Below are positions 10,043 to 60,592 of a DNA stretch of 64,000 nucleotides, one piece after another (within the stretch, counting starts at the first letter, position 1; each line of letters opens with the position of its first letter). The DNA is taken from the NCBI GenBank assembly GCA_012646185.1, contig GCA_012646185.1_4706.1; one strand, 5' to 3'. Below the pieces are notes generated by a model. The model was not told the origin of the DNA. It worked only from the letters and a program-made list of their open reading frames with translations, and made no database searches. The position numbers were made by a program, and so were the translations under genes. Source of the stretch: a phage.

Positions 10043-10066
10043 GAATGAAATCTCGCTGGCTTACTT

Positions 10067-10093
10067 CACTTAAGTAATATAGCCGTGAAAAAT
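10067..10093 (-). promoter_or_regulatory. conserved 25-nt motif copy 1 (plus strand TCACTTAAGTAATATAGCCGTGAAA)
   Basis: One of four near-identical intergenic copies; minus-strand reading contains TATATTAC. Confidence 0.45.
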
Positions 10094-22568: not shown

Positions 22569-22593
22569 TCACTAAGGTAATATAGTCGTGAAA
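22569..22593 (-). promoter_or_regulatory. conserved 25-nt motif copy 2 (plus strand TCACTAAGGTAATATAGTCGTGAAA)
   Basis: ~83 nt upstream (minus orientation) of the 21704..22486 start. Confidence 0.5.
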
Positions 22594-44731: not shown

Positions 44732-47269
44732 TTACTGCTCTTCACGTTCCAGCAGATACTCGGAAGCGGTAATACCGTTTACCGTACGTACTGCTTTCAG
44801 ACGAGTATCATCGCTCAGAATTACAGTAACAGATTGCAGACCTTTTACTTTGGTTTCGAAGGTCTTGAACACCTGATCCAGCATACGAGCAATGCTTGGG
44901 TTGGTTGCAGCAGATGCGTGAGTGTAACCGCTCTGGTTCAGCTTCAGAATCTTGGCGTTGGTCGGTACGCGAACAACAACATGCGGACGCATCGCGAACA
45001 CGCTGTGATTGAACCAGTAAGCATCGTTGCTATCTTCGTCGGTAACGATGTCTGGATTAACACGCATATCCTCGATAGCCGCATCCGCCAAACGACGTTC
45101 GATTTCGTCAGCATCCAGAGAACCATCTTTCTCCAGTTCTGCACGATACTCACTCATGGCAACCAGATGACGTTCACGATTCGCTGCGGATTTTTCGTGA
45201 GCGGCTTTCAGGTAGTCATGCATGTTGTACAGTTCTGCCATGGAAAGACGAATGTTCCACTGACCTTCGCCGTCACGATTGCAGTAGAGACACTTCAGCA
45301 TGTTGACCCAGGTATAGTAGCAATTGGAGAATTCATCTTCAATGAACTTCTGGTCCATTTTAAGATCGTGAATCAGCCAACCGGACAGTTCTCCGATATC
45401 ATCAACGAAGCTAGAGATGGTGGTTTCAGAGAAGTTCTTCGGTACGATACGTTTGATCAGCTTGTTAACGTCTTTGGTCATGCTATCATTCAGGAAATGC
45501 CAGATACGCAGAGGAATGACATCTCGATACTGTTGCATGATCTGACGATAAGCTTTGATATCGTCGCTACGACCTTTATCAATAGACAACGCATCCAGGA
45601 ATTCATGGATTGCATCCAGCTCTTTGTCGGTATAGGTTCCCAGATAGGAATTGACGGTGGCCAGGAATGCTAATGCGTCGTTTTGGTTGACGTCGGTGTT
45701 GGTCTGCTGAATGATCGCTACTGAAGCTTTGGTTTCAGCATCCTCAACGCTTGACGCTGCGATCGCGTCGGTGACGGTAAACAGTTTCATTTCGCGCTGC
45801 TCACCGACAACGATTGGCTCACGCTGAACCGGCTTGTTAAGACTAACACGAACAACTTCTGCTTGCGCGATACGATCCAGTTTTGCCATTTCCTGCTCTG
45901 CCATACGACGAGCGGTTGGATCTGATTCAAGTTCGATGTATTCCACTTCTTCCTCCGTGAGGGATGTAATGTCAACAATGGTTTCATGAAGAATTCCGTT
46001 TTCGTCGATACGTGCTCGACGAGCGAAGTGCCTGAAGTCATACAACGTCGGCCAACGACTATTAGGTGCAAAGTCTTTGGCTTTCAGACGCATCTGCATA
46101 AATTCTTCATGTTGAACAACACGACCGTAACGCTTAGCATCTTCGGTCGCATCAATTGGATTAACGGTCTTTGTTGCCGTAGCGGAACGAGCCGTACGAA
46201 CCGGTTCAGGTTGAACGGGTTTCTGCTGCCCAGCCTTAACATGCCATTCTGGCTCTTCGTACTGCTCAGCAAATTGCTCAGCGGCTGCAAAGATATCGTT
46301 GATACCACCAATATCTCCTTCAGGATTTGTCGAGTAAATCCGTGGTTGTGGTGCCTCGTAACGCGGCGCTGTAGCAGCAGGTGCGTCATCAACGATAGGA
46401 TCGTCATCACCAACATCATACAAACGGTTGAACGCACAATCCTTCGAATCAATGTACGATGGCGTTTGTGGTTGGACAACCGTCGGCCGAGGTTGTGTGC
46501 CGTATCCTGGTGTTGTTGGAGCCATACCACGCATAACTGCTGGGTTAGGTTGGTATTGTGGTTGCGGGTAGGTTCCACCATACATGGCGTACGCAGGCTG
46601 TTGCGGTTGACCATACCCGTTGCTAACCATCGCACTTGCTTGCGGACCACGATAAGTCATCCCCATCTGCATCACCTGCTGCTTCAAACCACGTGACTTC
46701 TGAGCGATTTGCGCTAGGCTTCCGCTTTTATTCAGCTGCGTGTACTTGTTCGCGGCTTCCGGGTTAATGCGTGATAATTCAATCGCGCGATAATATTCCG
46801 GGTACTGATTCGGTTCAAAGAGCCACGTTACAAGATGATACAGCGCAACTGTGCTCACAGCAGCAGAGACGATCTGGTCGTCGGACGCGTTCTGTGGCAT
46901 CGGGTTGATGTAAGAGAACACGTTCCAACAACAGTCTTCAACAAGCGATTCCATCATCATATCGTTATTGGTATAACGTGCGACGAACTCGGTTTGTATT
47001 TTGTCTTGCTGAGCGAAGTCTTTCAGGACATTAAAGATGGCTTGACGGATTTTGACGATCGTCGCTTCTTGGGTGATGAAGTTATAGTTCTGCTGATATG
47101 AGGGTTGTTGGTATTGTGGTGGTTGATAGGCGTTATTCGGGTATGCGCCGTACGGCGATTGCTGATACTGTTGCTGACGAACCCGTTCAGCCGCATAATT
47201 AACCGTGCTCGTATAGGGGTTTTCGCTATAGCCCATTTGTTGATACATGTTGTTACTGCCATTATACAT
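44732..47269 (-). CDS. large protein with Q/Y/P-rich low-complexity regions (845 aa)
   Basis: ATG with AAGGA SD; N-terminal and central Gln/Tyr/Pro-rich low-complexity segments. Confidence 0.65.
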   Translation of the reverse strand: MYNGSNNMYQQMGYSENPYTSTVNYAAERVRQQQYQQSPYGAYPNNAYQPPQYQQPSYQQNYNFITQEATIVKIRQAIFNVLKDFAQQDKIQTEFVARYTNNDMMMESLVEDCCWNVFSYINPMPQNASDDQIVSAAVSTVALYHLVTWLFEPNQYPEYYRAIELSRINPEAANKYTQLNKSGSLAQIAQKSRGLKQQVMQMGMTYRGPQASAMVSNGYGQPQQPAYAMYGGTYPQPQYQPNPAVMRGMAPTTPGYGTQPRPTVVQPQTPSYIDSKDCAFNRLYDVGDDDPIVDDAPAATAPRYEAPQPRIYSTNPEGDIGGINDIFAAAEQFAEQYEEPEWHVKAGQQKPVQPEPVRTARSATATKTVNPIDATEDAKRYGRVVQHEEFMQMRLKAKDFAPNSRWPTLYDFRHFARRARIDENGILHETIVDITSLTEEEVEYIELESDPTARRMAEQEMAKLDRIAQAEVVRVSLNKPVQREPIVVGEQREMKLFTVTDAIAASSVEDAETKASVAIIQQTNTDVNQNDALAFLATVNSYLGTYTDKELDAIHEFLDALSIDKGRSDDIKAYRQIMQQYRDVIPLRIWHFLNDSMTKDVNKLIKRIVPKNFSETTISSFVDDIGELSGWLIHDLKMDQKFIEDEFSNCYYTWVNMLKCLYCNRDGEGQWNIRLSMAELYNMHDYLKAAHEKSAANRERHLVAMSEYRAELEKDGSLDADEIERRLADAAIEDMRVNPDIVTDEDSNDAYWFNHSVFAMRPHVVVRVPTNAKILKLNQSGYTHASAATNPSIARMLDQVFKTFETKVKGLQSVTVILSDDTRLKAVRTVNGITASEYLLEREEQ

Positions 47270-47303: not shown

Positions 47304-49100
47304 TCAATCGATTATGTCGTGATCGTTAATTTCTACAATTTCTTCATCGAATCGACCGACGTCTTTCTTCAAGCCTGCATTGGTTGCTGCAACGTCATTT
47401 GCAATTTGTGGGGTAATGATTAACCGACCGCGCTCATCGATAGGTGCGTACATACTGAACTTCTGACGTCCGGTTGGTTCGGAGTGTGGAAGATTCAGAT
47501 AGCTTGCACAGAACGGGATGGAACCACTAACCAAACGACTCTCGTCAGCCAATGCAGCACCGCCTGCGTTTTGGCTCTGGAGAACAACATGCGTGCTCAC
47601 TTTGAACAGCATGCAATCACCAGGTGACTGAATCGATGTTGCCACTTTCTCACGTTTATCACGATTGCTCTGGATATTGAGAATCGCTTCCGTTGCAACT
47701 TGATTTCGCAACGCCTTCTGTACATCGCGATTGGTCATCTCTTTACGGTTGTTCTGTCGTTTACCACGTTCTGTGGTTTTAAGATGGAACCCCAGTTTAA
47801 AGATGCTCTTACGCACATCCTCCATGACATATTCCAACACCATCAATTCCTTACCGAACATCGTCGTGGTGTCAACACGACTCATTTCGATAGTGACATT
47901 GTCAATCAGATACGCCATAAATTCATAGAAGTCGTCGCAAGGAATATTTTCCTGTTTGAACTTCTTCTGCTGAATTTCGTCAACGTAAAGATCGAGACTG
48001 TCGATGTGGTGGTTTACATCACGCAACAAACGCGCATCCGCATTGTTGTTATTAAAGATAATCAAACCGAGTAATGTACGCCAATGGTCTGGCGCATTCG
48101 CGAACTCTTCAACCGGATAGTCTTCCGGAAAACGATCGTAATAACGGTCGATGAGATACAAGAATGCACCGACAAGGCCAAGAACAATACGTTCCGTGCC
48201 TCCACGTCTTACAGCAATTTGAATATCAGGATGTTTGTAACGTACAGCGCTAGCGCTACGGCTTTTACCGCTTTTGCTGATACTAAAGCCTTTAGGAATA
48301 ACCCCCATGGTGCGATAGATTACCCATTGGTCACGCGGAAAATCACGTTCAGCAAGGTTCCGTCCGGTTACGGCTTCGACACCTGCAAAACGTCGGAAAC
48401 ACTCACCCACCCCGTACTTCGCAAAGAGATAGTGACCCAGTGTGGTTACGCTGGTGTGGTTGATGTTGTCACCGTTCACTTTACTTTGTTTAGTAAGATG
48501 ATAGATTTGCGACCAGGGTAATGACAGGTAATGACGATAATCGATACCGGTCGGTGTATCGTTGCTCAGGAACTGATACGGTGTACGTTTAACCGTGATT
48601 TTGTCACGCGGAAGCATGATGAACGCCATGTCTTTCGTGTAACTGATTACGGGGTCAGCGAGTACCGCACTGAGAATGAAGTTCGCACCACGTAGACGCA
48701 TTTTACCACCCTGACCTACCGCGGGTAATAGGAGAGGATGTCGGATAATGCAGTAGTCCTTTCCGGGTTCACGACGGTCACCTGATTCCATCGCGCCGTA
48801 CCAGCGGAATTCTAGCATCACCATAAACACATCGGAAGGCGCAAGGTCGAAGGTCAGCTTACCGCTATCCTTCCCTTTGGTTTTCTTTCCTCCGCTTAAG
48901 TAGTGGAACTGTTCGCGGGCCATACAGCGACGCAGGCCATGATACACCAGATCCTTAGGTAAACTATCTTTGCTGTTCCGCCAAAGACGATCAACATAGG
49001 ACTCAACATCTTGCATCTTATCGACGACGATGTTGCGTGCTATCTTCTCGTTCATCTTCGGTGCAAGCTCAGCGACAGCTTTGCAGAATCTAGGATCCAT
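47304..49100 (-). CDS. hypothetical protein (598 aa)
   Basis: ATG with AAGGAG SD (track start 49103 is GTG). Confidence 0.6.
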   Translation of the reverse strand: MDPRFCKAVAELAPKMNEKIARNIVVDKMQDVESYVDRLWRNSKDSLPKDLVYHGLRRCMAREQFHYLSGGKKTKGKDSGKLTFDLAPSDVFMVMLEFRWYGAMESGDRREPGKDYCIIRHPLLLPAVGQGGKMRLRGANFILSAVLADPVISYTKDMAFIMLPRDKITVKRTPYQFLSNDTPTGIDYRHYLSLPWSQIYHLTKQSKVNGDNINHTSVTTLGHYLFAKYGVGECFRRFAGVEAVTGRNLAERDFPRDQWVIYRTMGVIPKGFSISKSGKSRSASAVRYKHPDIQIAVRRGGTERIVLGLVGAFLYLIDRYYDRFPEDYPVEEFANAPDHWRTLLGLIIFNNNNADARLLRDVNHHIDSLDLYVDEIQQKKFKQENIPCDDFYEFMAYLIDNVTIEMSRVDTTTMFGKELMVLEYVMEDVRKSIFKLGFHLKTTERGKRQNNRKEMTNRDVQKALRNQVATEAILNIQSNRDKREKVATSIQSPGDCMLFKVSTHVVLQSQNAGGAALADESRLVSGSIPFCASYLNLPHSEPTGRQKFSMYAPIDERGRLIITPQIANDVAATNAGLKKDVGRFDEEIVEINDHDIID

Positions 49101-49139: not shown

Positions 49140-50576
49140 TTACTTTTTCGATGACGCCTTTTCAAGAATCTTGAAAAAGGTCATACCTATACCGACAACG
49201 GCCGCGGTTATGCTCGCAGCGGCTTTCCAAACATCGACGTTACGTTGACGTCGCGCTTCTTCCGCTTCACGTTGTCTTTTTGCCTCTTCATCACGTCGAC
49301 GTATCTCAGCAGCAAACTCGTCGTGCTTACGTTTGGCTTCTTCGTCTCGACGACGAAGTTCAGCGACGAATTCTTCATGTTTGCGTTTAGCCTCGTCATC
49401 ACGACGTTTTAAATCAGCTTGATAATCTTCGTGTATTTGTTTACGTAGATCATCTTGACGCTTCATTTCGGCTTGGTGTTGTTCCATCCTACGTTTTTGT
49501 TCGTCTTTAAGCTGATCGAGTTCGGCTTTATGTTGTTCATCGCGCAGCTTTGCGTCGGCGCGATGCGCCTCATGCATCTGTGCGATAACTGCCTTGTGTT
49601 CATCCGCCATACGCCGCATTTCAGCCATCACCCCTTTAAGGGTTTCTTCTGATGCCTTACGTTCGTAGCTACGCTGGTCGAAATCATTTTTGTAGGCTTC
49701 TTTTTGGATGGGGTCGCGCCAATGCAATGCCGATTCACGTGTCGGAAAAACATTGTACTTCCACATCTCTTTTTCCAAATCTTCGACCGGTACGAAGATG
49801 GAGTCATTATTCCCGAAGGTAACCAACATACCTGGCGCGCCTGCTCCATTCGTTGGTTTTATTTCGAACGCTTTCCCCAGCACGTTAACCCATAAGCTAT
49901 ACGGATTATGAAAGTCGGGTGGCGTCCAATGGATAGTGAGTTGCGTTCCGAGAATCCGGAAACCCTCTGTTTTTCCCGTCAAGCTCCGCGCGCACGTTGC
50001 GATGTAGGGGTGATCAATCCCTTTCGTAACGTGGTCTGCGCTTTTGTATTCTCCTTTAACTTTTACGATTGCCACGTTGATTTGCGCGACATAAGCAGGT
50101 TGATTAAAGTTCAGCGTGTTGAGGTCAATTTGACATATTTCATCCAGCGTATCGTACCAGTCTTGCTGGTCTAATAGACGCGGCATTTTCTCAGCGTTAA
50201 CAATACGACGGATATGCGGTTTCCTTATCGCGTAACCTGTGCCGTTTTTAACACGGAGTATATCCCGACGTCTACCCGCGTAGACGAAGTTTCTGAATGC
50301 ACCATTCGCATTAGATACGTCATGGCTGTCAACTATTACAGGACTACGAAATTTTGAACGTCGTACGATCCTGAATGTATTGCCGTCCTCAACCCTACCA
50401 GGAATGTACTGGAACATATTGTCGGAGGTGATAACCAACACGGTATGGCCAGATTCATTAATACATGCCCATCCTAATTCCAGGTCATATAACGGTTCAG
50501 CATAACCGTCAATGCGATAAGCGTGCGTACCATCCCACGGTTCGAACGCGGTATCACATATTGGCATGGAGGGCAT
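49140..50576 (-). CDS. protein with charged coiled-coil repeats and C-terminal TM anchor (478 aa)
   Basis: ATG at 50576 with GGAGG SD (track start 50582 is TTG); tandem RRDEEAKRKH-EF-AE-RR repeats then hydrophobic AAASITAAVVGIGMTFF. Confidence 0.6.
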   Translation of the reverse strand: MPSMPICDTAFEPWDGTHAYRIDGYAEPLYDLELGWACINESGHTVLVITSDNMFQYIPGRVEDGNTFRIVRRSKFRSPVIVDSHDVSNANGAFRNFVYAGRRRDILRVKNGTGYAIRKPHIRRIVNAEKMPRLLDQQDWYDTLDEICQIDLNTLNFNQPAYVAQINVAIVKVKGEYKSADHVTKGIDHPYIATCARSLTGKTEGFRILGTQLTIHWTPPDFHNPYSLWVNVLGKAFEIKPTNGAGAPGMLVTFGNNDSIFVPVEDLEKEMWKYNVFPTRESALHWRDPIQKEAYKNDFDQRSYERKASEETLKGVMAEMRRMADEHKAVIAQMHEAHRADAKLRDEQHKAELDQLKDEQKRRMEQHQAEMKRQDDLRKQIHEDYQADLKRRDDEAKRKHEEFVAELRRRDEEAKRKHDEFAAEIRRRDEEAKRQREAEEARRQRNVDVWKAAASITAAVVGIGMTFFKILEKASSKK

Positions 50577-50725
50577 CGTCAACCTCCATCTGATTGAAAA
50601 CTATCACGCATAATGCATTTCCCTTTTCTTGTTCTTATCGAGCCGACAGCCGACGGTTTCAGCATCGTTCCTAGCGCGAGAACGACCTTACGTGTTGTCT
50701 ATGCCTTATTCATCGCAGGCGTCTG

Positions 50726-50750
50726 TCACCTAGGTAATGTAAGCGTCAAA
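50726..50750 (-). promoter_or_regulatory. conserved 25-nt motif copy 3 (plus strand TCACCTAGGTAATGTAAGCGTCAAA)
   Basis: Between the family hairpin and the 49140..50576 start (minus orientation). Confidence 0.5.
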
Positions 50751-50784
50751 TTTTTTCTATTCGCAACAATAAACGGCATAGAAA

Positions 50785-50814
50785 CCTCCCCCAACCCTTA
50801 CGGGCTGAGGGAGG
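50785..50814. terminator. conserved CT/GA hairpin (CCTCCC-CCAACCC-TTAC-GGGCTGA-GGGAGG)
   Basis: Downstream of the major structural gene stop in minus orientation. Confidence 0.6.
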
Positions 50815-50913
50815 CTGACTTATGTATCACGGTGCCGGATGAATGTCCGGTGCAATGAAACCATCCGCAACGTTGTCGTCAAGAATATCGTCCAACGAAG
50901 CAGCTACGGTAGT

Positions 50914-53136
50914 TCAGTTAGTCTGAACCGGCAGCTTGATGTTTTCAGTGTAGACCTTACGCAGGTTCACAACGTTAATCAGACCCAGCAGCGGGCAGTT
51001 GTTAACGAAGCGGCAGCGCGGCTGAACCATGGTTTCTTTAGAAACCTGACCGTTACGGGTAACCTGAGCAACAGATACCAGTTCCGGTACATACAGGAAC
51101 ATACCGAAGGTCAGCGGATCCGGAGAACCCTGGATACCACGAGACAGGGTCACGAAGATCTTATCGCGCAGCATGACGTTCGGGTTATCTACAACCACGA
51201 AGTTGAAGCTTACACCAACGGTACGGAAATCGCCATCGGTCTGCAGGAACTGCGGGATGTAGTTGTCAGTTGCTACTACGCAACGCGGTTTCTCATCAGC
51301 GTTGGAAGACAGCAGCTGCAGAGCTGGCTGATAACCAGACTCGGAGTACATGCGGTATGCCATCTCACGAATCACGTTCATGATCGCAGCAGACACTTCA
51401 GCACGACGTTCTGCAGTGGTGGTACCCTGAACAGATTTCTCCAGGTCCAGATTGATTTCTTCGAACCACGGACGGATCAGGTAACGACCGAAACCTTCGA
51501 TCTGGATGTCGCCGAACTGACGGAAGCGAGAGGTCGCAACCGCTTTCAGTGCGTCTTTGTAGCTGAACAGTTTCTCAACCATCAGGTTGTCGAAACGTGC
51601 GTTAGCAGCTTGGATCAGAACGTCCAGGTCAGCAGCGTTTTCTTCCCAATCCAGCGGACGAGGAATGGAGAACGGAGCCAGCAGGCCGATTGCGTAACGT
51701 TCTTGCTTCATGTTGAAGTCAAGGTGCTTACCGCGCTCACGACGGTTGCTGTTGTTACGGCGGATACGCAGTTCGTAACCAACCAGTTTGAAGCTCAGGT
51801 CTTCAGCCAGCTGTTTGAACTCTTCGCCCTTACGCGGTTGTTCGATGTTGTCACGATCGACCAGACGATACAGTTCAGCGTTAGCGCCGTTAACACGCAG
51901 ACCGGCTTTCTCTACGTTGGAAGAACCGTAAACTTCGATTGCCAGCTGAGCAGCGGATTTCGAATCGATGATGTCCTGCAGCGCTTCAGCTCGTGCACCT
52001 TTAACGTCAACGGTGTTCTCATCAACGAAGATGGAGTGGGTGTCGAACGCCAGGGTCATTTTGCGGAAGTCGCCTTCCAGGGATTTCTGGAAACCGTTGG
52101 TGATCAGACCAGATACGTCGAACGGTACGTAAGAGGTTTTGCTGTGCTTGGTAGATTTGATTTCCACCAGGATTTTGGTCAGCGTGATCTGGGCGTCCAG
52201 CGCGTCGGTGTTGTCGCTGTAACCGTTAGCCAGGATGCTATCGTCTTCAGCGATACCGATCATGTCGATCAGTTTATCAACAGCCAGGTAAGACGTTTTA
52301 TAAGTTACGCCTTTAATTTCGATGTCGCGCGGAGCAACGATAGCTTTGTCAACGAAGTACTGTGCGTTAGCATCGTCAGCACGATAGATCGGATGCAGAT
52401 CGGTCACGTCGTTGGACAGAACGTCGTTGTACATGAACGCATCCAGCAGCGGACGACGTACCCAATCAGCCGGAGTACCGTCAGCGTTACGACGCAGGTG
52501 GTTGAACACCAGCGGACGACGGAAAGATACGTCGTAACCGATCTGGTTCGGAGCCAGAACGATGGTGTTGTACAGTTCGTTACCCATGCGGCTCAGACGA
52601 GAAGCCTTCACGTTGAACACAACGGAGTACGGCATCATGTCACGCAGTTCTTTCTGGTCGTAGGACAGCTGAACCAGTTCTTCAGATTCGCAACCGCAGG
52701 AATCAGCAGCCATCATGACGAAGTTAGAGCTGTCAACTTCACGGCCAGACGGAGTGGTGCTGATGTTCATGGAACGTGCTTGTTTAGCATATTCCACCGG
52801 GTTACCATGAGCCAGCATGATCAGTGCTGCTGCACGAGCCTGCTGTGCGTTCATGGTGAACAGCTGTTCTTCAATACGCTGCTTCTCTTCCGGAGTGGTG
52901 GTTTCGAAGCCCAGCATGGACAGAACCGGTTCTTCGGCTTTACGGATGTCGCTGCTGAAGCTCTTAACATCCATTTCGTTAACCAGTTTGTCCATGGATT
53001 TGAAATCAACCTTAGAAGCAGATTCCATAGACAGGAAGGTGTTCTCCAGACCTTTGTCTGCTGGTTTGCTACCATTAGCGGTCAGGAACTGGCGAGTGGC
53101 CGCGACCTGTTGGCTAAGAAGGGTTTTATCATTCAT
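50914..53136 (-). CDS. major virion structural protein (major capsid or tail sheath candidate, 740 aa)
   Basis: Strongest codon-usage bias in the window; ATG with AAGGA SD; length matches phiKZ-type major capsid proteins but also sheath proteins; no motif-level assignment possible. Confidence 0.55.
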   Translation of the reverse strand: MNDKTLLSQQVAATRQFLTANGSKPADKGLENTFLSMESASKVDFKSMDKLVNEMDVKSFSSDIRKAEEPVLSMLGFETTTPEEKQRIEEQLFTMNAQQARAAALIMLAHGNPVEYAKQARSMNISTTPSGREVDSSNFVMMAADSCGCESEELVQLSYDQKELRDMMPYSVVFNVKASRLSRMGNELYNTIVLAPNQIGYDVSFRRPLVFNHLRRNADGTPADWVRRPLLDAFMYNDVLSNDVTDLHPIYRADDANAQYFVDKAIVAPRDIEIKGVTYKTSYLAVDKLIDMIGIAEDDSILANGYSDNTDALDAQITLTKILVEIKSTKHSKTSYVPFDVSGLITNGFQKSLEGDFRKMTLAFDTHSIFVDENTVDVKGARAEALQDIIDSKSAAQLAIEVYGSSNVEKAGLRVNGANAELYRLVDRDNIEQPRKGEEFKQLAEDLSFKLVGYELRIRRNNSNRRERGKHLDFNMKQERYAIGLLAPFSIPRPLDWEENAADLDVLIQAANARFDNLMVEKLFSYKDALKAVATSRFRQFGDIQIEGFGRYLIRPWFEEINLDLEKSVQGTTTAERRAEVSAAIMNVIREMAYRMYSESGYQPALQLLSSNADEKPRCVVATDNYIPQFLQTDGDFRTVGVSFNFVVVDNPNVMLRDKIFVTLSRGIQGSPDPLTFGMFLYVPELVSVAQVTRNGQVSKETMVQPRCRFVNNCPLLGLINVVNLRKVYTENIKLPVQTN

Positions 53137-57005: not shown

Positions 57006-57207
57006 CGTATTTTACCTTTCTATGTTAGGTGGATTGCGGATAGAAGAATCAATGCATAGATTGATAGTTCTTTGTTAGAAATTATTGCCGAACCGGTTAT
57101 GGTTATAACGCGTGTTTTCGTATTCTGACGGGTCGCGTATTAATAAGGCCATGACTGTATCCTCGATTATTAAGAGAAATTTACAACGATAACAGTAACC
57201 GCTGTTA

Positions 57208-57232
57208 TCACCTAGGTAATGTAGTCGCGAAA
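57208..57232 (-). promoter_or_regulatory. conserved 25-nt motif copy 4 (plus strand TCACCTAGGTAATGTAGTCGCGAAA)
   Basis: 35 nt from the family hairpin at 57268; same arrangement as copy 3. Confidence 0.5.
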
Positions 57233-57267
57233 TAAACTGGAGTAATGCGAAATAAGACAGCATAGAA

Positions 57268-57299
57268 CCCTCTCCCAACCCATCAGGGAAGGGAGAGGG
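57268..57299. terminator. conserved CT/GA hairpin (CCCTCTCCCAACCC-ATCA-GGGAAGGGAGAGGG)
   Basis: Directly downstream of the 57304..58671 stop. Confidence 0.6.
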
Positions 57300-57303
57300 A
57301 ATA

Positions 57304-59279: not shown

Positions 59280-60592
59280 GGTTCAATAGCTCCTGCTCGT
59301 AACAGCATAATAACGAACGGTGTGAAATAATAACGATCTAGCGGAGAAAGCAACGGTATTGCGTCAACCATCTGTTTCAGTGCCGGATGGCTGATCGCTT
59401 TCTCATCGACCATATCACGTACCATACTCTCAATAATCGTCATTGGGGCTTGATTGCGGTAGAAAGCCTCTGTGAAAACATAGTACGGATCGTCCGCTAC
59501 CGATGGAAACAACGGAACGCCGTCATACTCCATCGATGTAAGGTTGGTCACCAACGGATTTGTCGGTGGTGTGTTTTCAGGTACAGCCAACTCTTTACCT
59601 ACGTCTTCACCGAGCGACGTGGTCGCAGGCCACATACAGAACCGCGCACCACTAAAACGAATCCCACCTGCAGCCGGGTACTGATAGAAACGCTTTGTTG
59701 ACAACAGTGTGAATTTCACCGTCAACCGTGCTTCGTCTTCCCGACGTCCGTCCATGACCCATTCAAAGACAGAAATCGCGTTCGCTTCCTGGCTGTCGTC
59801 TACGTTAAGGCGTCCGAAGTTCCATGAAGGTTTTCCTTCAAGCGACGACCATAATTTCGTAAACGCGTTAACGCACCAGGGATCGTAGGTTGCAGCATCT
59901 TGACCAGGAACAAGCAATGTGTTTAATTCACGGCTGTAGAATTCATGGTAGTACGCGTGACAAAGTCCCAGTGCACGACGGAGATAATCGTACTTACGAT
60001 TGTATTTCTCCGTTGCCATTACGGGATGTTTTCCGTGCTTTAACTGGTCTTGGTCGTACAGCGTATCCTCAACGATTTTCGCTTCCAGTTCGATAAGCTG
60101 TTTTTCGTCAAGAATACGTTGGAAGGAAATATCACATTCGTAAGCCGGTGCTAAGCTGATGTTCTTCGGCGTGATTCGGGTGATCGTGTACACCGCGATA
60201 CGATGATCGAGACCGGAGATTAACAGCATGTTACCTAAAAGAGGAACCGATACCGCCGGAAGTATACACGTACCCTCGGATTGAAAACGTGCGGTCCCGT
60301 TGTCGTACGACGGCGTCAATGACGACATTAACTTGATAGGGTAATGTCTGATGCGACGGTACTGCTGCTCGGCAATATCACGGTTAGCTTGAAAACTGCT
60401 TTGTTCATCATCACGACCGAGAATCTGTTCGTAATAATCACATTCTACGGAATAACCGGATGCGTAATTCACTAACCCGATTTGACTATTGTATTGCTCA
60501 TCCACCACTGCAGAACGATAAACATCGTCGCGAGCCTTCGCGGGTTGTTGGGGGTTGATGATGGGTTTCGCGGGCTTCTTAGCGAGCGCCAT
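59276..60592 (-). CDS. hypothetical protein (438 aa)
   Basis: ATG with AGGAGTG SD; 14-nt overlap with upstream gene. Confidence 0.6.
   Translation of the reverse strand: MALAKKPAKPIINPQQPAKARDDVYRSAVVDEQYNSQIGLVNYASGYSVECDYYEQILGRDDEQSSFQANRDIAEQQYRRIRHYPIKLMSSLTPSYDNGTARFQSEGTCILPAVSVPLLGNMLLISGLDHRIAVYTITRITPKNISLAPAYECDISFQRILDEKQLIELEAKIVEDTLYDQDQLKHGKHPVMATEKYNRKYDYLRRALGLCHAYYHEFYSRELNTLLVPGQDAATYDPWCVNAFTKLWSSLEGKPSWNFGRLNVDDSQEANAISVFEWVMDGRREDEARLTVKFTLLSTKRFYQYPAAGGIRFSGARFCMWPATTSLGEDVGKELAVPENTPPTNPLVTNLTSMEYDGVPLFPSVADDPYYVFTEAFYRNQAPMTIIESMVRDMVDEKAISHPALKQMVDAIPLLSPLDRYYFTPFVIMLLRAGAIEP

Follow-up and report, generated by a model that had tools for sequence, protein, structure and literature searches.

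The window analysed here, a stretch of 64,000 nucleotides of phage DNA, belongs to a close relative of the E. coli jumbo phage Goslar. On its minus strand lies an open reading frame of 478 aa whose product is 99.2-99.4% identical to Goslar gp40 (Goslar_00040), with three substitutions, and is called gp40 in the following. The frame opens with an ATG at 50576 behind a Shine-Dalgarno sequence GGAGG at 50583-50587, which is able to pair with the CCUCC of codons 2-3. About 36 nt downstream of gp40 follows the gene for the β subunit of the non-virion RNA polymerase (nvRNAP; gp39), which matches phrog_2943 ("polymerase", E 7e-120), is core gene cg36 in the core-gene table and carries the nvRNAP label in Goslar Table S4. 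The initial annotation had described a membrane-anchored protein with near-perfect coiled-coil repeats, perhaps an early gene embedded in the structural region. The reading frame, the quoted peptide, the hydrophobic segment, the basic tail and the upstream motif were all recovered, but the repeats are not near-perfect; an early gene in the structural region is supported by several indirect lines that converge, but a coiled coil in the repeat region is not supported. The genes and the parts of gp40 are as follows.

50914..53136, minus strand: upstream gene, major capsid protein (Goslar gp41), from PF25620 PhiKZ_MCP (E 4.5e-216) and the Goslar cryo-EM paper
49140..50576, minus strand: coding sequence of 478 aa, Goslar gp40 ortholog, core gene cg35 (ORF list and translation)
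49692..50576, minus strand: N-terminal β-rich head domain, about residues 1-295 (family alignments, AlphaFold2 secondary structure)
49233..49691, minus strand: charged α-helical stalk, about residues 296-448 (composition, AlphaFold2, low heptad occupancy)
49251..49574, minus strand: array of 18-residue repeats (54 nt, five helical turns each), residues 335-442 (lag autocorrelation, unit table)
49251..49412, minus strand: the three best repeat units, residues 389-442
49173..49223, minus strand: C-terminal hydrophobic helix AAASITAAVVGIGMTFF, residues 452-468, rich in small residues, putative tail anchor (hydropathy)
49143..49172, minus strand: basic tail KILEKASSKK, residues 469-478 (translation; compare ...SILEKLFKKR in PhiPA3)
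47304..49100, minus strand: downstream gene in the same transcription unit, nvRNAP β subunit (Goslar gp39, PhiKZ gp123)

Family membership, synteny and the head domain

By sequence, gp40 is the Chimalliviridae core gene cg35, the family of PhiKZ gp122, PhiPA3 gene 138, RAY gp001 and 201phi2-1 gp202. Table S3 of Prichard et al. equates cg35 with Goslar gp040, PhiKZ gp122 and RAY gp001*, the asterisk marking genes unique to chimallin-encoding phages, and the PhiPA3 member is YP_009217217.1. The match of gp40 itself to phrog_7727 is weak (E 2.4e-5); the syntenic SPLA10 protein matches PHROGs 7727, 7286 and 15024 and thereby bridges them, 15024 being the PHROG of PhiKZ gp122. The same core motif is recovered by hhalign between gp40 and the family, and Foldseek on BFVD returned 26 matches, all of them uncharacterised jumbo-phage orthologs, with E-values of 1e-9 to 1e-5 against 201phi2-1, RP12, PhiEaH1 and further members. 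Pfam holds no family for gp40 or for the four orthologs tested, and all PHROG matches of the family are labelled "unknown function". A literature search on Goslar gp40, PhiKZ gp122, 201phi2-1 gp202 and RAY gp001 found no functional study; the "gp122" of the SPN3US and Churi papers are unrelated proteins and do not belong to the PhiKZ gp122 family.

The gene order around cg35 is highly conserved on one side. In all phages examined, which are the window, Goslar, SPLA10, PhiKZ, PCH45, PhiEaH1, RSL2, FLC9, Wellington, RAY, Huxley and PhiPA3, the gene lies directly upstream of that for nvRNAP β, with a spacer of 3-39 nt and a single exception in SPLA10 (a 270-nt gap). On the other side it usually follows the major capsid gene, with other genes in between in PCH45 and Wellington, and it belongs to core block 5, where structural genes abound.

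All orthologs examined share a head, a charged stalk and a hydrophobic or amphipathic helix at the C-terminus. In gp40 the head carries the family motifs N40-x-S, H189-P190, WVNVLGKAFEI, APGMLV and FPTRESA; the head motifs shared with the distant members are NxS, HP, YxNVxG, GxY and FxTxEEA. Strands predominate in the AlphaFold2 models of the head, which are of low confidence in both runs (pLDDT 58 and 52, pTM 0.30 and 0.39). Foldseek of these models against the PDB gave a best E-value of 0.29 with nothing below, and a profile search against PDB sequences gave no meaningful match for the head. An exhaustive profile search with the head domain against 1.8 billion representatives returned three clusters only, to which word-indexed searches added close relatives and Wellington-like proteins and nothing further. 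The cg35 family is too divergent for deep alignments.

The charged stalk and the C-terminal helix

Residues D, E, K and R make up 54% of the stalk, and AlphaFold2 predicts one uninterrupted helix over residues 289-475 with a pLDDT of 75-89 across 320-440. Within the latter part of this helix an 18-residue period produces autocorrelation peaks at lags 18, 36 and 54. The peptide that had been quoted as near-perfect tandem repeats is present verbatim at residues 391-444, but the units are imperfect, with 14/18 identical residues between 389-406 and 407-424 and 10/18 between 407-424 and 425-442. A faint trace of the period reaches as far back as about residue 335, with 35% identity at lag 18 vs 5-15% at other lags. 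Between units, DNA identity is 56-65%, and just 3 of the 14 conserved residues use the same codon. Due to this divergence, Tandem Repeats Finder remained silent; together with a direct-repeat search it detected no DNA-level array at gp40, so that the repeats are visible in the protein alone. As judged from codon usage, the repeats are old and kept by selection and not the product of recent duplication. Close relatives differ within the array by indels of 11 and 18 residues.

A coiled coil was taken to require hydrophobic residues at most a and d positions over at least four heptads. In the best register, hydrophobic a/d occupancy reaches 0.62-0.75 only over residues 296-344, with a peak at 310-337, compared with 0.78-0.85 for the controls GCN4 and Lpp and 0.5 for tropomyosin (0.78 with Ala counted). 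Residues 296-344 look heptad-like, but a coiled coil is not supported in the repeat part, where occupancy falls to 0.25-0.5 over 345-446. What the repeats do show is a narrow stripe of F, L, I or V: such residues recur at i and i+4 with each 18-residue unit and stay within an arc of 100 degrees, and this stripe could allow a straight pairing of two stalk helices. The stalk has sequence properties by which ER/K single α-helices (SAH) are recognised, namely a high content of E, K and R, dense i/i+4 opposite-charge pairs (39 at i/i+4 and 45 at i/i+3 in 149 stalk residues) and a continuous predicted helix. It resembles a single α-helix spacer more than a coiled coil and would probably behave as a stiff rod. 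If fully helical, the stalk would reach about 22-25 nm.

The length of the stalk is not conserved, with 150-197 residues in the Goslar lineage, 43-64 in Pseudomonas phages and 53-122 elsewhere. The stalk of the Goslar lineage is by far the longest among cg35 members and differs from the others in being made of 18-residue repeats, which appear, from the alignments, to have been inserted after an ancestral pre-anchor motif "RSxERKxSExLK". The range of 43-197 residues across the family, a 4.6-fold variation, argues against a ruler that sets a fixed distance, and a fixed-length molecular ruler was dropped as a candidate function.

Behind the stalk, the single hydrophobic segment and basic tail of the earlier description are borne out by AAASITAAVVGIGMTFF at 452-468 and KILEKASSKK after it. 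AAASITAAVVGIGMTFF has a Kyte-Doolittle 19-residue mean of 1.76 (usual threshold 1.6) and a Hessa sum of +1.35 over its 17 residues; it is the sole strongly hydrophobic stretch of gp40, the next best 19-mer having a Hessa sum of +9.6. The protein therefore has the layout of a tail-anchored protein, with one hydrophobic segment no more than about 30 residues from the C-terminus and no other transmembrane segment or signal peptide, and membrane anchoring is a plausible prediction. With just 17 residues and basic residues on either flank, the Goslar-type helix would be as compatible with an in-plane or monotopic anchor as with a transmembrane span.

A hydrophobic or amphipathic helix stands at the extreme C-terminus of every ortholog examined. 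In the Goslar-like, Erwinia, Serratia, Ralstonia and Burkholderia lineages it consists of 17-19 uncharged residues (Hessa sums of -0.4 to +3.5), and in many orthologs the protein terminates where this stretch does. By hydropathy the putative anchor of the Goslar lineage may be of transmembrane grade, whereas the corresponding helices of PhiKZ, PhiPA3 and RAY contain D, E or K and are amphipathic, with Hessa sums of +5.5 to +7 for PhiKZ and RAY and a judgement by eye for PhiPA3. As these helices are not of transmembrane grade, the conserved property of the C-terminal helix may be peripheral membrane binding or a protein-protein contact.

The upstream module and expression timing

Between the major capsid gene and gp40 lies a compact set of putative regulatory elements, some of which recur elsewhere in the window.

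57208..57228, minus strand: motif copy 4; upstream of it, at about 57250-57300, lie a separate hairpin and TCTATGC box
50783..50816, minus strand: 15-bp GC-rich hairpin with a GUAA loop, intrinsic-terminator-like, directly after the major capsid gene
50773..50785, minus strand: conserved TATG-containing box GTTTCTATGCCGT, adjoining the hairpin on its 3' side
50726..50746, minus strand: promoter-like motif ACGCTTACATTACCTAGGTGA ("copy 3") with the A-tract AAAAAATTTG before it, a putative early (virion RNA polymerase) promoter
50577..50725, minus strand: presumed 5' untranslated leader of about 140-150 nt
22569..22589, minus strand: motif copy 2, upstream of a gp21-like operon of small genes
10066..10086, minus strand: motif copy 1, upstream of a gp4-like operon

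The placement of the gene directly downstream of motif copy 3 was correct: gp40 starts 150 nt after the motif, and the hairpin at 50783-50816 precedes it. The motif has the consensus ACGnC-TAYATTAC-YTWRGTGA and occurs four times in the window vs 0.09 expected. The whole Goslar genome has about 13 good copies. Each lies on the coding strand at the start of an operon, and among these operons are those of the nuclear shell gene chmA with the nvRNAP β' gene, of gp175 (nvRNAP sigma-like) and of gp165 (nvRNAP). As a general rule, chimallivirus early promoters carry a conserved AT-rich motif some 10 nt before the start site, and the virion RNA polymerase transcribes the nvRNAP genes, which belong to the early class (PMC7598289). 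The gp40 promoter candidate shares its motif with these known early operons, and the transcript would be expected to begin about 7-10 nt downstream of TACATTAC, near 50720-50725. The leader shows nothing unusual in its structure (fold z = +0.24), and a scan for sigma-70 promoters over 48.9-51.1 kb gave no match.

The hairpin folds with -31.3 kcal/mol (z = -5.7), and none of 200 shuffles was equally stable. The terminator part of the sigma-70 scan missed it because its T-run is short. Equivalent hairpins exist at 57.2 kb and in PhiKZ. The box GTTTCTATGCCGT has exact matches solely at 50773-50785 and 57257-57269, and PhiKZ has CTTTATGTTGT in the same place; TATG is the core of the PhiKZ late promoter (PMC7598289).

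At the orthologous position PhiKZ carries the same hairpin together with TATATTAC. The terminator-promoter module, consisting of the hairpin and the TAYATTAC motif, is conserved between Goslar and PhiKZ. With the early-promoter motif of Goslar and this PhiKZ-conserved module now defined, both can be of use in annotation and engineering.

The phage-protein list of Goslar Table S4 (virion LC-MS/MS) contains the neighbours gp038, gp039, gp041 and gp042 and reaches down to about 0.1 copy per virion, and gp040 (YP_009820725) is absent from its entries. By this list, gp40 is a non-virion protein. The suggestion of an early gene embedded in the structural region gains support from the motif at the chmA and nvRNAP operons, the PhiKZ module, the linkage to nvRNAP and the absence from the virion list. 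From these indications we infer that gp40 is expressed early.

Possible roles and related systems

Published screens offer some indications of what the family does. Both antisense oligomers against PHIKZ122 were scored "+", and at 30 min "strong effects on phage transcription" followed from its knock-down (PMC12571901); transposon sequencing recovered no disruptive insertions in PHIKZ120-124 (PMC12676376). Thus cg35 appears to be important in PhiKZ, although polarity on the neighbouring essential nvRNAP gene may account for these phenotypes. In PhiPA3 the gene 138 protein is found in the tables for ChmA miniTurboID and the ChmA-GFP pulldown and, according to the text of that paper, in the pulldowns of both ChmA and ChmB (gp2) (PMC10643120). 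These detections are weak: the ChmA pulldown yielded a single peptide, and in proximity labelling the normalised area was about 1e-5. The EPI vesicle of Goslar stays attached to the nucleus, and the published account leaves the binding mode of the two compartments unexplained (PMC10541120).

To accommodate these observations, gp40 can be read as an early, tail-anchored tether or spacer between a lipid membrane and the ChmA/ChmB shell. This reading is tentative, with a probability of roughly 0.35. The layout of the sequence, the orthology, the synteny, the distribution of the promoter motif and the missing entry in the virion list are observed directly; membrane insertion, the single helix, timing, partner and tethering are each a matter of prediction. 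In such a model, gp40 would be transcribed from a virion-RNA-polymerase promoter together with the nvRNAP β subunit, and a cytoplasmic β-rich head of about 295 aa would be carried on a charged helical stalk of about 150 aa. The anchor would hold the membrane and the head would engage a phage protein assembly, for which the ChmA/ChmB nuclear shell is the best-supported candidate, so that gp40 would link the EPI vesicle or the inner membrane to the nascent phage nucleus. A narrower version, in which gp40 is the physical link between EPI vesicle and nucleus, is quite unlikely: the anchor would sit in the vesicle and the head, some 20-25 nm away at the tip of a stiff lone helix, would capture the nascent ChmA/ChmB shell, thereby keeping vesicle and nucleus attached and enabling a protected hand-off of the genome. 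The reach could then be tuned in the Goslar lineage by gain or loss of whole 18-residue (five-turn) units.

That cg35 in most lineages comes next after the major capsid gene, and that its core block 5 holds many structural genes, invites a different explanation, namely a factor that would anchor or nucleate procapsid assembly at the inner membrane, its head binding to the portal, the scaffold or the major capsid protein. Capsids would start on the membrane, and gp40 would be left behind when they move to the nucleus. Chimallivirus capsids do assemble on the inner membrane with no anchor known (PMC12908238, PMC10299810), absence from the mature virions, as far as the Goslar list goes, is expected of an assembly factor, and the TATG box after the hairpin could permit additional late transcription. 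The PhiPA3 ortholog moreover co-purifies with ChmB, in whose pulldown capsid and portal proteins dominate; as ChmB pulldowns abound in such proteins, capsid association could equally explain the PhiPA3 detections. Yet the tightest and only universal linkage is that to nvRNAP β, genes intervene between major capsid gene and cg35 in PCH45 and Wellington, and an early-type promoter and a strong terminator separate gp40 from the late capsid transcript. An effect on transcription at 30 min is not predicted by a capsid-assembly defect either, and neither Pfam nor PHROGs shows similarity to head-assembly families; a role in procapsid assembly is judged unlikely. The same PhiPA3 detections, by proximity labelling with ChmA and by pulldown with each of ChmA and ChmB, would also suit a protein that is not embedded in lipid at all and projects from the shell, with the C-terminal helix acting as a protein-protein element that bundles oligomers or plugs into the ChmA lattice. 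The amphipathic helices of PhiKZ, PhiPA3 and RAY, with acidic and basic residues inside, point in this direction, as does the richness of the helix in G, A, S and T, which is typical of tight helix-helix packing. This arrangement is likewise doubtful: most lineages have the classic tail-anchor signature of 17-19 uncharged C-terminal residues (Hessa -0.4 to +3.5), many orthologs stop exactly there, and the published shell-interaction study does not report the ortholog among shell-localised proteins.

The invariant gene pairing and the transcription phenotype would both be explained if gp40 were an assembly, retention or delivery helper for the β subunit encoded immediately downstream. The two genes adjoin in every phage examined, and phage transcription at 30 min is altered by knock-down of PHIKZ122 and likewise by that of PHIKZ124, which flanks the β gene on its far side. 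A helper of this kind is nevertheless very unlikely: the nvRNAP purified by pulldown from PhiPA3 is listed with its five subunits including gp139 but not with the gene 138 protein, it is hard to see what an enzyme working inside the nucleus would gain from an anchor and a long stalk, and the phenotype may be mere polarity on gene 123. Barely credible is a lysis membrane protein of the spanin, holin or antiholin type with a coiled-coil domain, to which the single helix rich in small residues and the long charged helix bear a superficial likeness (i-spanins, some holin regulators). The topology is opposite to that of i-spanins, with a putative C-terminal anchor and a bulk that would be cytoplasmic; no lipoprotein or endolysin gene adjoins, the Goslar endolysins gp24 and gp98 being encoded elsewhere; the promoter is of the early type; the core gene is specific to nucleus-forming phages; and there is no PHROG or Pfam lysis match. 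On these grounds of topology and gene context, a spanin or holin function was discarded.

In nucleus-forming phages the genome leaves a lipid vesicle for a protein shell, and capsids are built on the inner membrane; a membrane-attached phage factor is known for neither process. One of about 21 core genes specific to these phages, cg35 has so far been annotated just as "hypothetical". The head, the stalk, the predicted tail anchor and the weak ChmA/ChmB proximity make it a concrete candidate for such a factor in the genetically tractable E. coli/Goslar system.

Among bacterial proteins, C-tail-anchored inner-membrane proteins such as E. coli ElaB, YqjD and YgaM are comparable in that they have a cytoplasmic N-terminal part, a single helix in the last ~30 residues and no signal peptide. 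By contrast, gp40 has no sequence relationship to them (no Pfam match), has a much longer charged stalk and is specific to nucleus-forming phages. ER/K single α-helix spacers occur in myosin VI/X and caldesmon, and the gp40 stalk is like them in being more than 50% charged, with dense i/i+4 pairs and too few hydrophobic residues for a heptad core, but unlike them in that a narrow hydrophobic stripe persists and residues 296-344 are heptad-like. Phage T4 builds its proheads with the portal gp20 and the membrane chaperone gp40. Seen from the procapsid explanation, the likeness would be that of a non-virion membrane protein which starts head assembly on the inner membrane, where T4 heads nucleate (PMC5694885). 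Goslar gp40 differs from the T4 system: no similarity to head-assembly families was detected, its promoter is of the early type, and its gene is paired with one for an RNA polymerase. If gp40 is instead a tether, it would be analogous to the membrane-contact tethers of eukaryotes and to golgin-type tail-anchored stalk proteins, which capture another compartment at a distance. By analogy, both would combine a tail anchor, a long rigid helical stalk and a distal binding head, although gp40 is unrelated in sequence, belongs to a bacterial virus and has as its proposed partner a protein shell and not a second membrane.

The gp40 gene and its upstream module

Escherichia phage vB_EcoM_Goslar, a jumbo phage of the Chimalliviridae that forms a nucleus, shares 98.8% DNA identity with the window. 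The gp40 frame (49140-50576, minus strand) encodes 478 aa, with an ATG start and a GGAGG ribosome-binding site 6 nt upstream, and its product differs from Goslar gp40 (Goslar_00040 / HOV27_gp040, named "hypothetical protein") by the substitutions A128T, I260V and K379R. The neighbouring genes all lie on the same strand, and three elements separate gp40 from the capsid gene:

50914-53136, minus: major capsid protein gene, upstream of gp40 (PF25620, E 4.5e-216)
50783-50816, minus: 15-bp GC-rich hairpin (-31.3 kcal/mol, z = -5.7)
50773-50785, minus: box GTTTCTATGCCGT, after the hairpin
50726-50746, minus: promoter-like motif ACGCTTACATTACCTAGGTGA, after an A-tract, 150 nt before the gp40 ATG
47304-49100, minus: nvRNAP beta subunit gene, ~36 nt downstream of gp40 (phrog_2943; labelled nvRNAP in the Goslar proteomics table)
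44732-47269, minus: gp38, Q-rich, 845 aa, next after the nvRNAP beta gene

The promoter-like motif follows the pattern ACGnC-TAYATTAC-YTWRGTGA, of which the window holds four copies, against 0.09 expected from shuffles. Every copy lies on the coding strand, a short distance ahead of an operon:

10066-10086, minus: motif copy
22569-22589, minus: motif copy
50726-50746, minus: motif copy, before gp40
57208-57228, minus: motif copy

In the complete Goslar genome about 13 good copies are found, all on one strand. They precede the gp4, gp21, gp40, gp47, gp75, gp105, gp159 and gp182 operons, the operon in which chmA, for the nuclear shell, is succeeded by an nvRNAP beta' gene, and the one in which gp175 (nvRNAP sigma-like factor) is succeeded by the PicA ortholog gp174, with a weaker match before the nvRNAP subunit gene gp165. 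Two flavours of the motif occur, with an upstream AAAAAAATTT tract or with ATTTTTCACGGC. The order is matched in PhiKZ downstream of the capsid gene: a hairpin GGCCCTCCCttcgGGGAGGGC comes first, TTTATGTTGT next, then an A-tract and finally TATATTAC, all ahead of gp121-gp122-gp123. According to a review, every RNAP-encoding jumbo phage carries a conserved AT-rich motif at about -10 of its early operons, which is read by the virion RNAP, and nvRNAP subunit genes are early genes (PMC7598289); the early motif is also present at PhiKZ chmA (PMC8244752). The Goslar motif is probably the early (virion RNAP) promoter, and the proposal in the initial annotation that gp40 may be an early gene embedded among structural genes is well supported by inference from the motif distribution, the PhiKZ module and the published rule. 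A sigma-70 scan of the gp40 region returned no promoter.

The TATG in the box after the hairpin is the core of PhiKZ late promoters, so that additional late expression of gp40 is possible and the whole may constitute a combined terminator, late-promoter and early-promoter module. A GC-rich terminator hairpin followed by a T(C)TATG(C/T)(C/T)GT box occurs in both window modules (50773-50816 and ~57250-57300, minus) and in PhiKZ (locus L003, 3095-3135), with looser box matches at window positions 59302, 62563 and 11040. The Shine-Dalgarno sequence GGAGG and a CCUCCAU in codons 2-4 allow a 7-bp stem (AUGGAGG / CCUCCAU, 50568-50590, minus) which could mask the ribosome-binding site; the leader RNA as a whole is of no unusual stability (fold z = +0.24).

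Some neighbouring features were seen in passing. The annotated start of Goslar gp47 (49772; locus L011, 49717-49772) lies upstream of the promoter motif at 49737-49717, and translation probably begins instead at the ATG that corresponds to window position 57152 (window region ~57152-57228). The gp38 protein, at the position of PhiKZ gp124, has a Q/Y/P-rich, low-complexity N-terminus and no family match, and is present at ~25 copies per virion despite belonging to the same putative early-promoter operon as gp40; knock-down of PHIKZ124 also altered phage transcription (PMC12571901). Outside the window and unrelated to gp40, two annotated group I introns interrupt Goslar RNA polymerase subunit genes (locus L014, 19269-19645; locus L015, 11817-12245), with HNH or NUMOD endonuclease genes adjoining them.

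Stalk helix and putative C-terminal anchor

The repeat peptide reported by the initial annotation is present at residues 391-444, but its description as near-perfect was too strong, as 14/18 residues agree between the 18-residue units 389-406 and 407-424, and 10/18 between 407-424 and 425-442. Autocorrelation over residues 300-450 gives sharp peaks at lags 18, 36 and 54 (35%, 25% and 25% identity versus 5-15% elsewhere), by which about six units can be recognised back to residue 335. Adjacent units are just 56-65% identical in DNA and use the same codon at only 3 of 14 conserved residues, a divergence which explains why Tandem Repeats Finder and DNA-level repeat searches did not report the array. 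These are old repeats, kept up at the level of the protein.

AlphaFold2 predicts an uninterrupted helix from residue 289 to 475 (pLDDT 75-89 over 320-440). Residues 300-448 are 54% D/E/K/R with a net charge near zero, contain 39 opposite-charge i/i+4 pairs and have only 16% large hydrophobic residues. The best-register heptad a/d occupancy reaches 0.62-0.75 only at 296-344 (peak 310-337) and is 0.25-0.5 over 345-446, which does not support the coiled coil that had been proposed for the repeats. The few hydrophobic residues of the repeat region recur with an 18-residue period, exactly five turns, at i and i+4 and within a 100-degree arc. Such a pattern is no canonical coiled coil and fits an ER/K-type single alpha-helix, or at most a straight, non-supercoiled pairing. 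If fully helical, the stalk would span ~25 nm from the FPTRESA motif to the anchor.

The hydrophobic segment AAASITAAVVGIGMTFF (residues 452-468) is, as first described, the sole one in the protein, with a Kyte-Doolittle 19-mer mean of 1.76 and a Hessa-scale sum of +1.35 versus +9.6 or more elsewhere; it is flanked by ...RQRNVDVWK and KILEKASSKK. In most lineages the anchor has Hessa sums of -0.4 to +3.5, with +5.5 in RAY and +7 in PhiKZ, and in many orthologs the hydrophobic stretch is the exact end of the protein. The simplest reading of these sequences is a tail-anchored membrane protein with a cytoplasmic head in Goslar and most other lineages. The C-terminal helix of PhiPA3 contains D, E and K and is amphipathic as judged by eye; in Pseudomonas phages, helices of this kind would attach to the surface of the membrane instead.

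Family, synteny and stalk variation

Repeat number is the same in the window and in Goslar. Close relatives from metagenomes and from Salmonella and E. coli assemblies (460, 478, 489 and 507 aa) differ by clean indels of 11 and 18 residues in the charged helix, about three and five turns. Whole-turn changes would be expected if it is important how head and anchor are oriented to each other, and could equally arise from unit duplication alone. Homologs of 413 and 406 aa at 27-33% identity keep the head, and the end of the helix and the anchor almost letter for letter (RDEEAKRQRE..RQR.VD.WKA plus the hydrophobic helix).

By tblastn and synteny the family was traced first to the SPLA10 phage of Salmonella, which led on to Serratia PCH45, Erwinia PhiEaH1, Wellington, Huxley and RAY, Ralstonia RSL2, Burkholderia FLC9, and Pseudomonas PhiKZ and PhiPA3. 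The gene lies immediately upstream of the nvRNAP beta gene in all of these and after the major capsid gene in most. The head motifs N-x-S/T, HP, Y-x-N-V-x-G, G-x-Y and F-x-T-x-E-E-A are common to all orthologs, as is the charged helix; each protein also has, at its very C-terminus, a helix that is hydrophobic or amphipathic. The SPLA10 protein bridges PHROGs 7727, 7286 and 15024, all of "unknown function". Pfam holds no family for gp40, deep homology searches returned few sequences, and PDB searches with the head by sequence and fold gave nothing. Both AlphaFold2 models of the head are of low confidence, and Foldseek with such a model against BFVD found 26 uncharacterised jumbo-phage proteins (311-406 aa) and nothing else. 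The RSL2 ortholog (AP014693, locus L006, 2288-3436) is annotated as 209 aa (ORF116); the open frame that carries the full similarity to the family encodes 382 aa, and the start was probably mis-called.

From the FxTxEEA motif to the anchor, the stalk measures 43 residues in PhiPA3, 64 in PhiKZ, 53-122 in Erwinia, Serratia, Ralstonia and Burkholderia phages and 150-197 in Goslar-like phages; as its length is not conserved, a role as a precise ruler is disfavoured. Repeats of 11 residues (RKDxYxERSxx) are found in many non-Goslar lineages, together with a motif RKDxSExLK(M/W)(I/L)P in front of the anchor. In PCH45, PhiEaH1, RSL2, FLC9, Wellington and Huxley these tandem repeats directly precede the anchor, and Huxley-like proteins have as many as 4-5 of them. 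A sequence resembling the junction motif, QRSYERKASEETLKGVM, stands at residues 301-317 of Goslar gp40. Because this likeness, aligned by eye, stands before the 18-residue repeats, it suggests that the repeat region is an expansion specific to the Goslar lineage.

Proposed role in nucleus-forming phages

The statements on architecture, orthology and the early operon are very probably correct. Prichard et al. list the gene as core gene cg35 (Goslar gp040, PhiKZ gp122, RAY gp001*), function "hypothetical", with the asterisk denoting genes unique to chimallin-encoding phages. LC-MS/MS of Goslar virions lists gp38 (~25 copies), gp39 (~0.14 copies), gp41 and gp42 and lacks gp40; the protein is no component of the virion. 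For PHIKZ122 of PhiKZ, the two antisense oligomers each scored "+", and its knock-down had "strong effects on phage transcription" at 30 min (PMC12571901); TnSeq recovered no disruptive insertions in PHIKZ120-124 (PMC12676376). Each of these results might stem from polarity on gene 123, which is essential. PhiPA3 gene 138, the ortholog, matches gp122 at 26.7% identity (E 1e-25) and is annotated as "similar to gp122 in phiKZ"; through its accession, YP_009217217.1, it was linked to the ChmA miniTurboID list and, with one peptide, to the ChmA-GFP pulldown (PMC10643120). The authors place this protein, of "no annotated or predicted function", in the pulldowns of both ChmA and ChmB (gp2) and also in proximity labelling (PMC10643120).

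By its sequence, gp40 is made to keep a globular domain away from whatever binds the very hydrophobic C-terminal helix. The favoured reading, with a probability of roughly 0.35, is that gp40 serves as a tether or spacer which joins the nuclear shell to a lipid membrane, either the EPI vesicle or the inner membrane. This is favoured because gp40 appears to be an early, non-virion protein that is confined to nucleus-forming phages and important for PhiKZ, with its PhiPA3 ortholog near ChmA and ChmB. The Goslar EPI vesicle stays attached to the nucleus and rotates with it, while its mode of binding and the hand-over of the genome are stated to be unknown (PMC10541120). Capsids in turn assemble on the inner membrane with no anchoring factor described (PMC12908238, PMC10299810), and gp40 might instead be the membrane anchor for procapsid initiation; its gene adjoins the capsid gene and ChmB pulldowns are rich in capsid protein, but neither the early promoter nor the effect of PHIKZ122 knock-down on phage transcription at 30 min fits such a role, which is considered rather unlikely. 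The same doubtful standing is given to a C-terminal helix that binds no lipid and serves either to form oligomers or to dock on the ChmA lattice. That gp40 helps the nvRNAP beta subunit is improbable, and a lysis function is disfavoured to the point of being very remote.

The protein is already in databases and in the published core-gene list, only as "hypothetical", and in the searchable literature no account was found of how it is built, of its promoter or of its likely anchoring in a membrane. Its interest is moderate at present and would be high if the reading as a vesicle-nucleus tether is true. In its proposed manner of working gp40 resembles both known tail-anchored stalk or tether proteins and ER/K spacers, while being unrelated to either in sequence.
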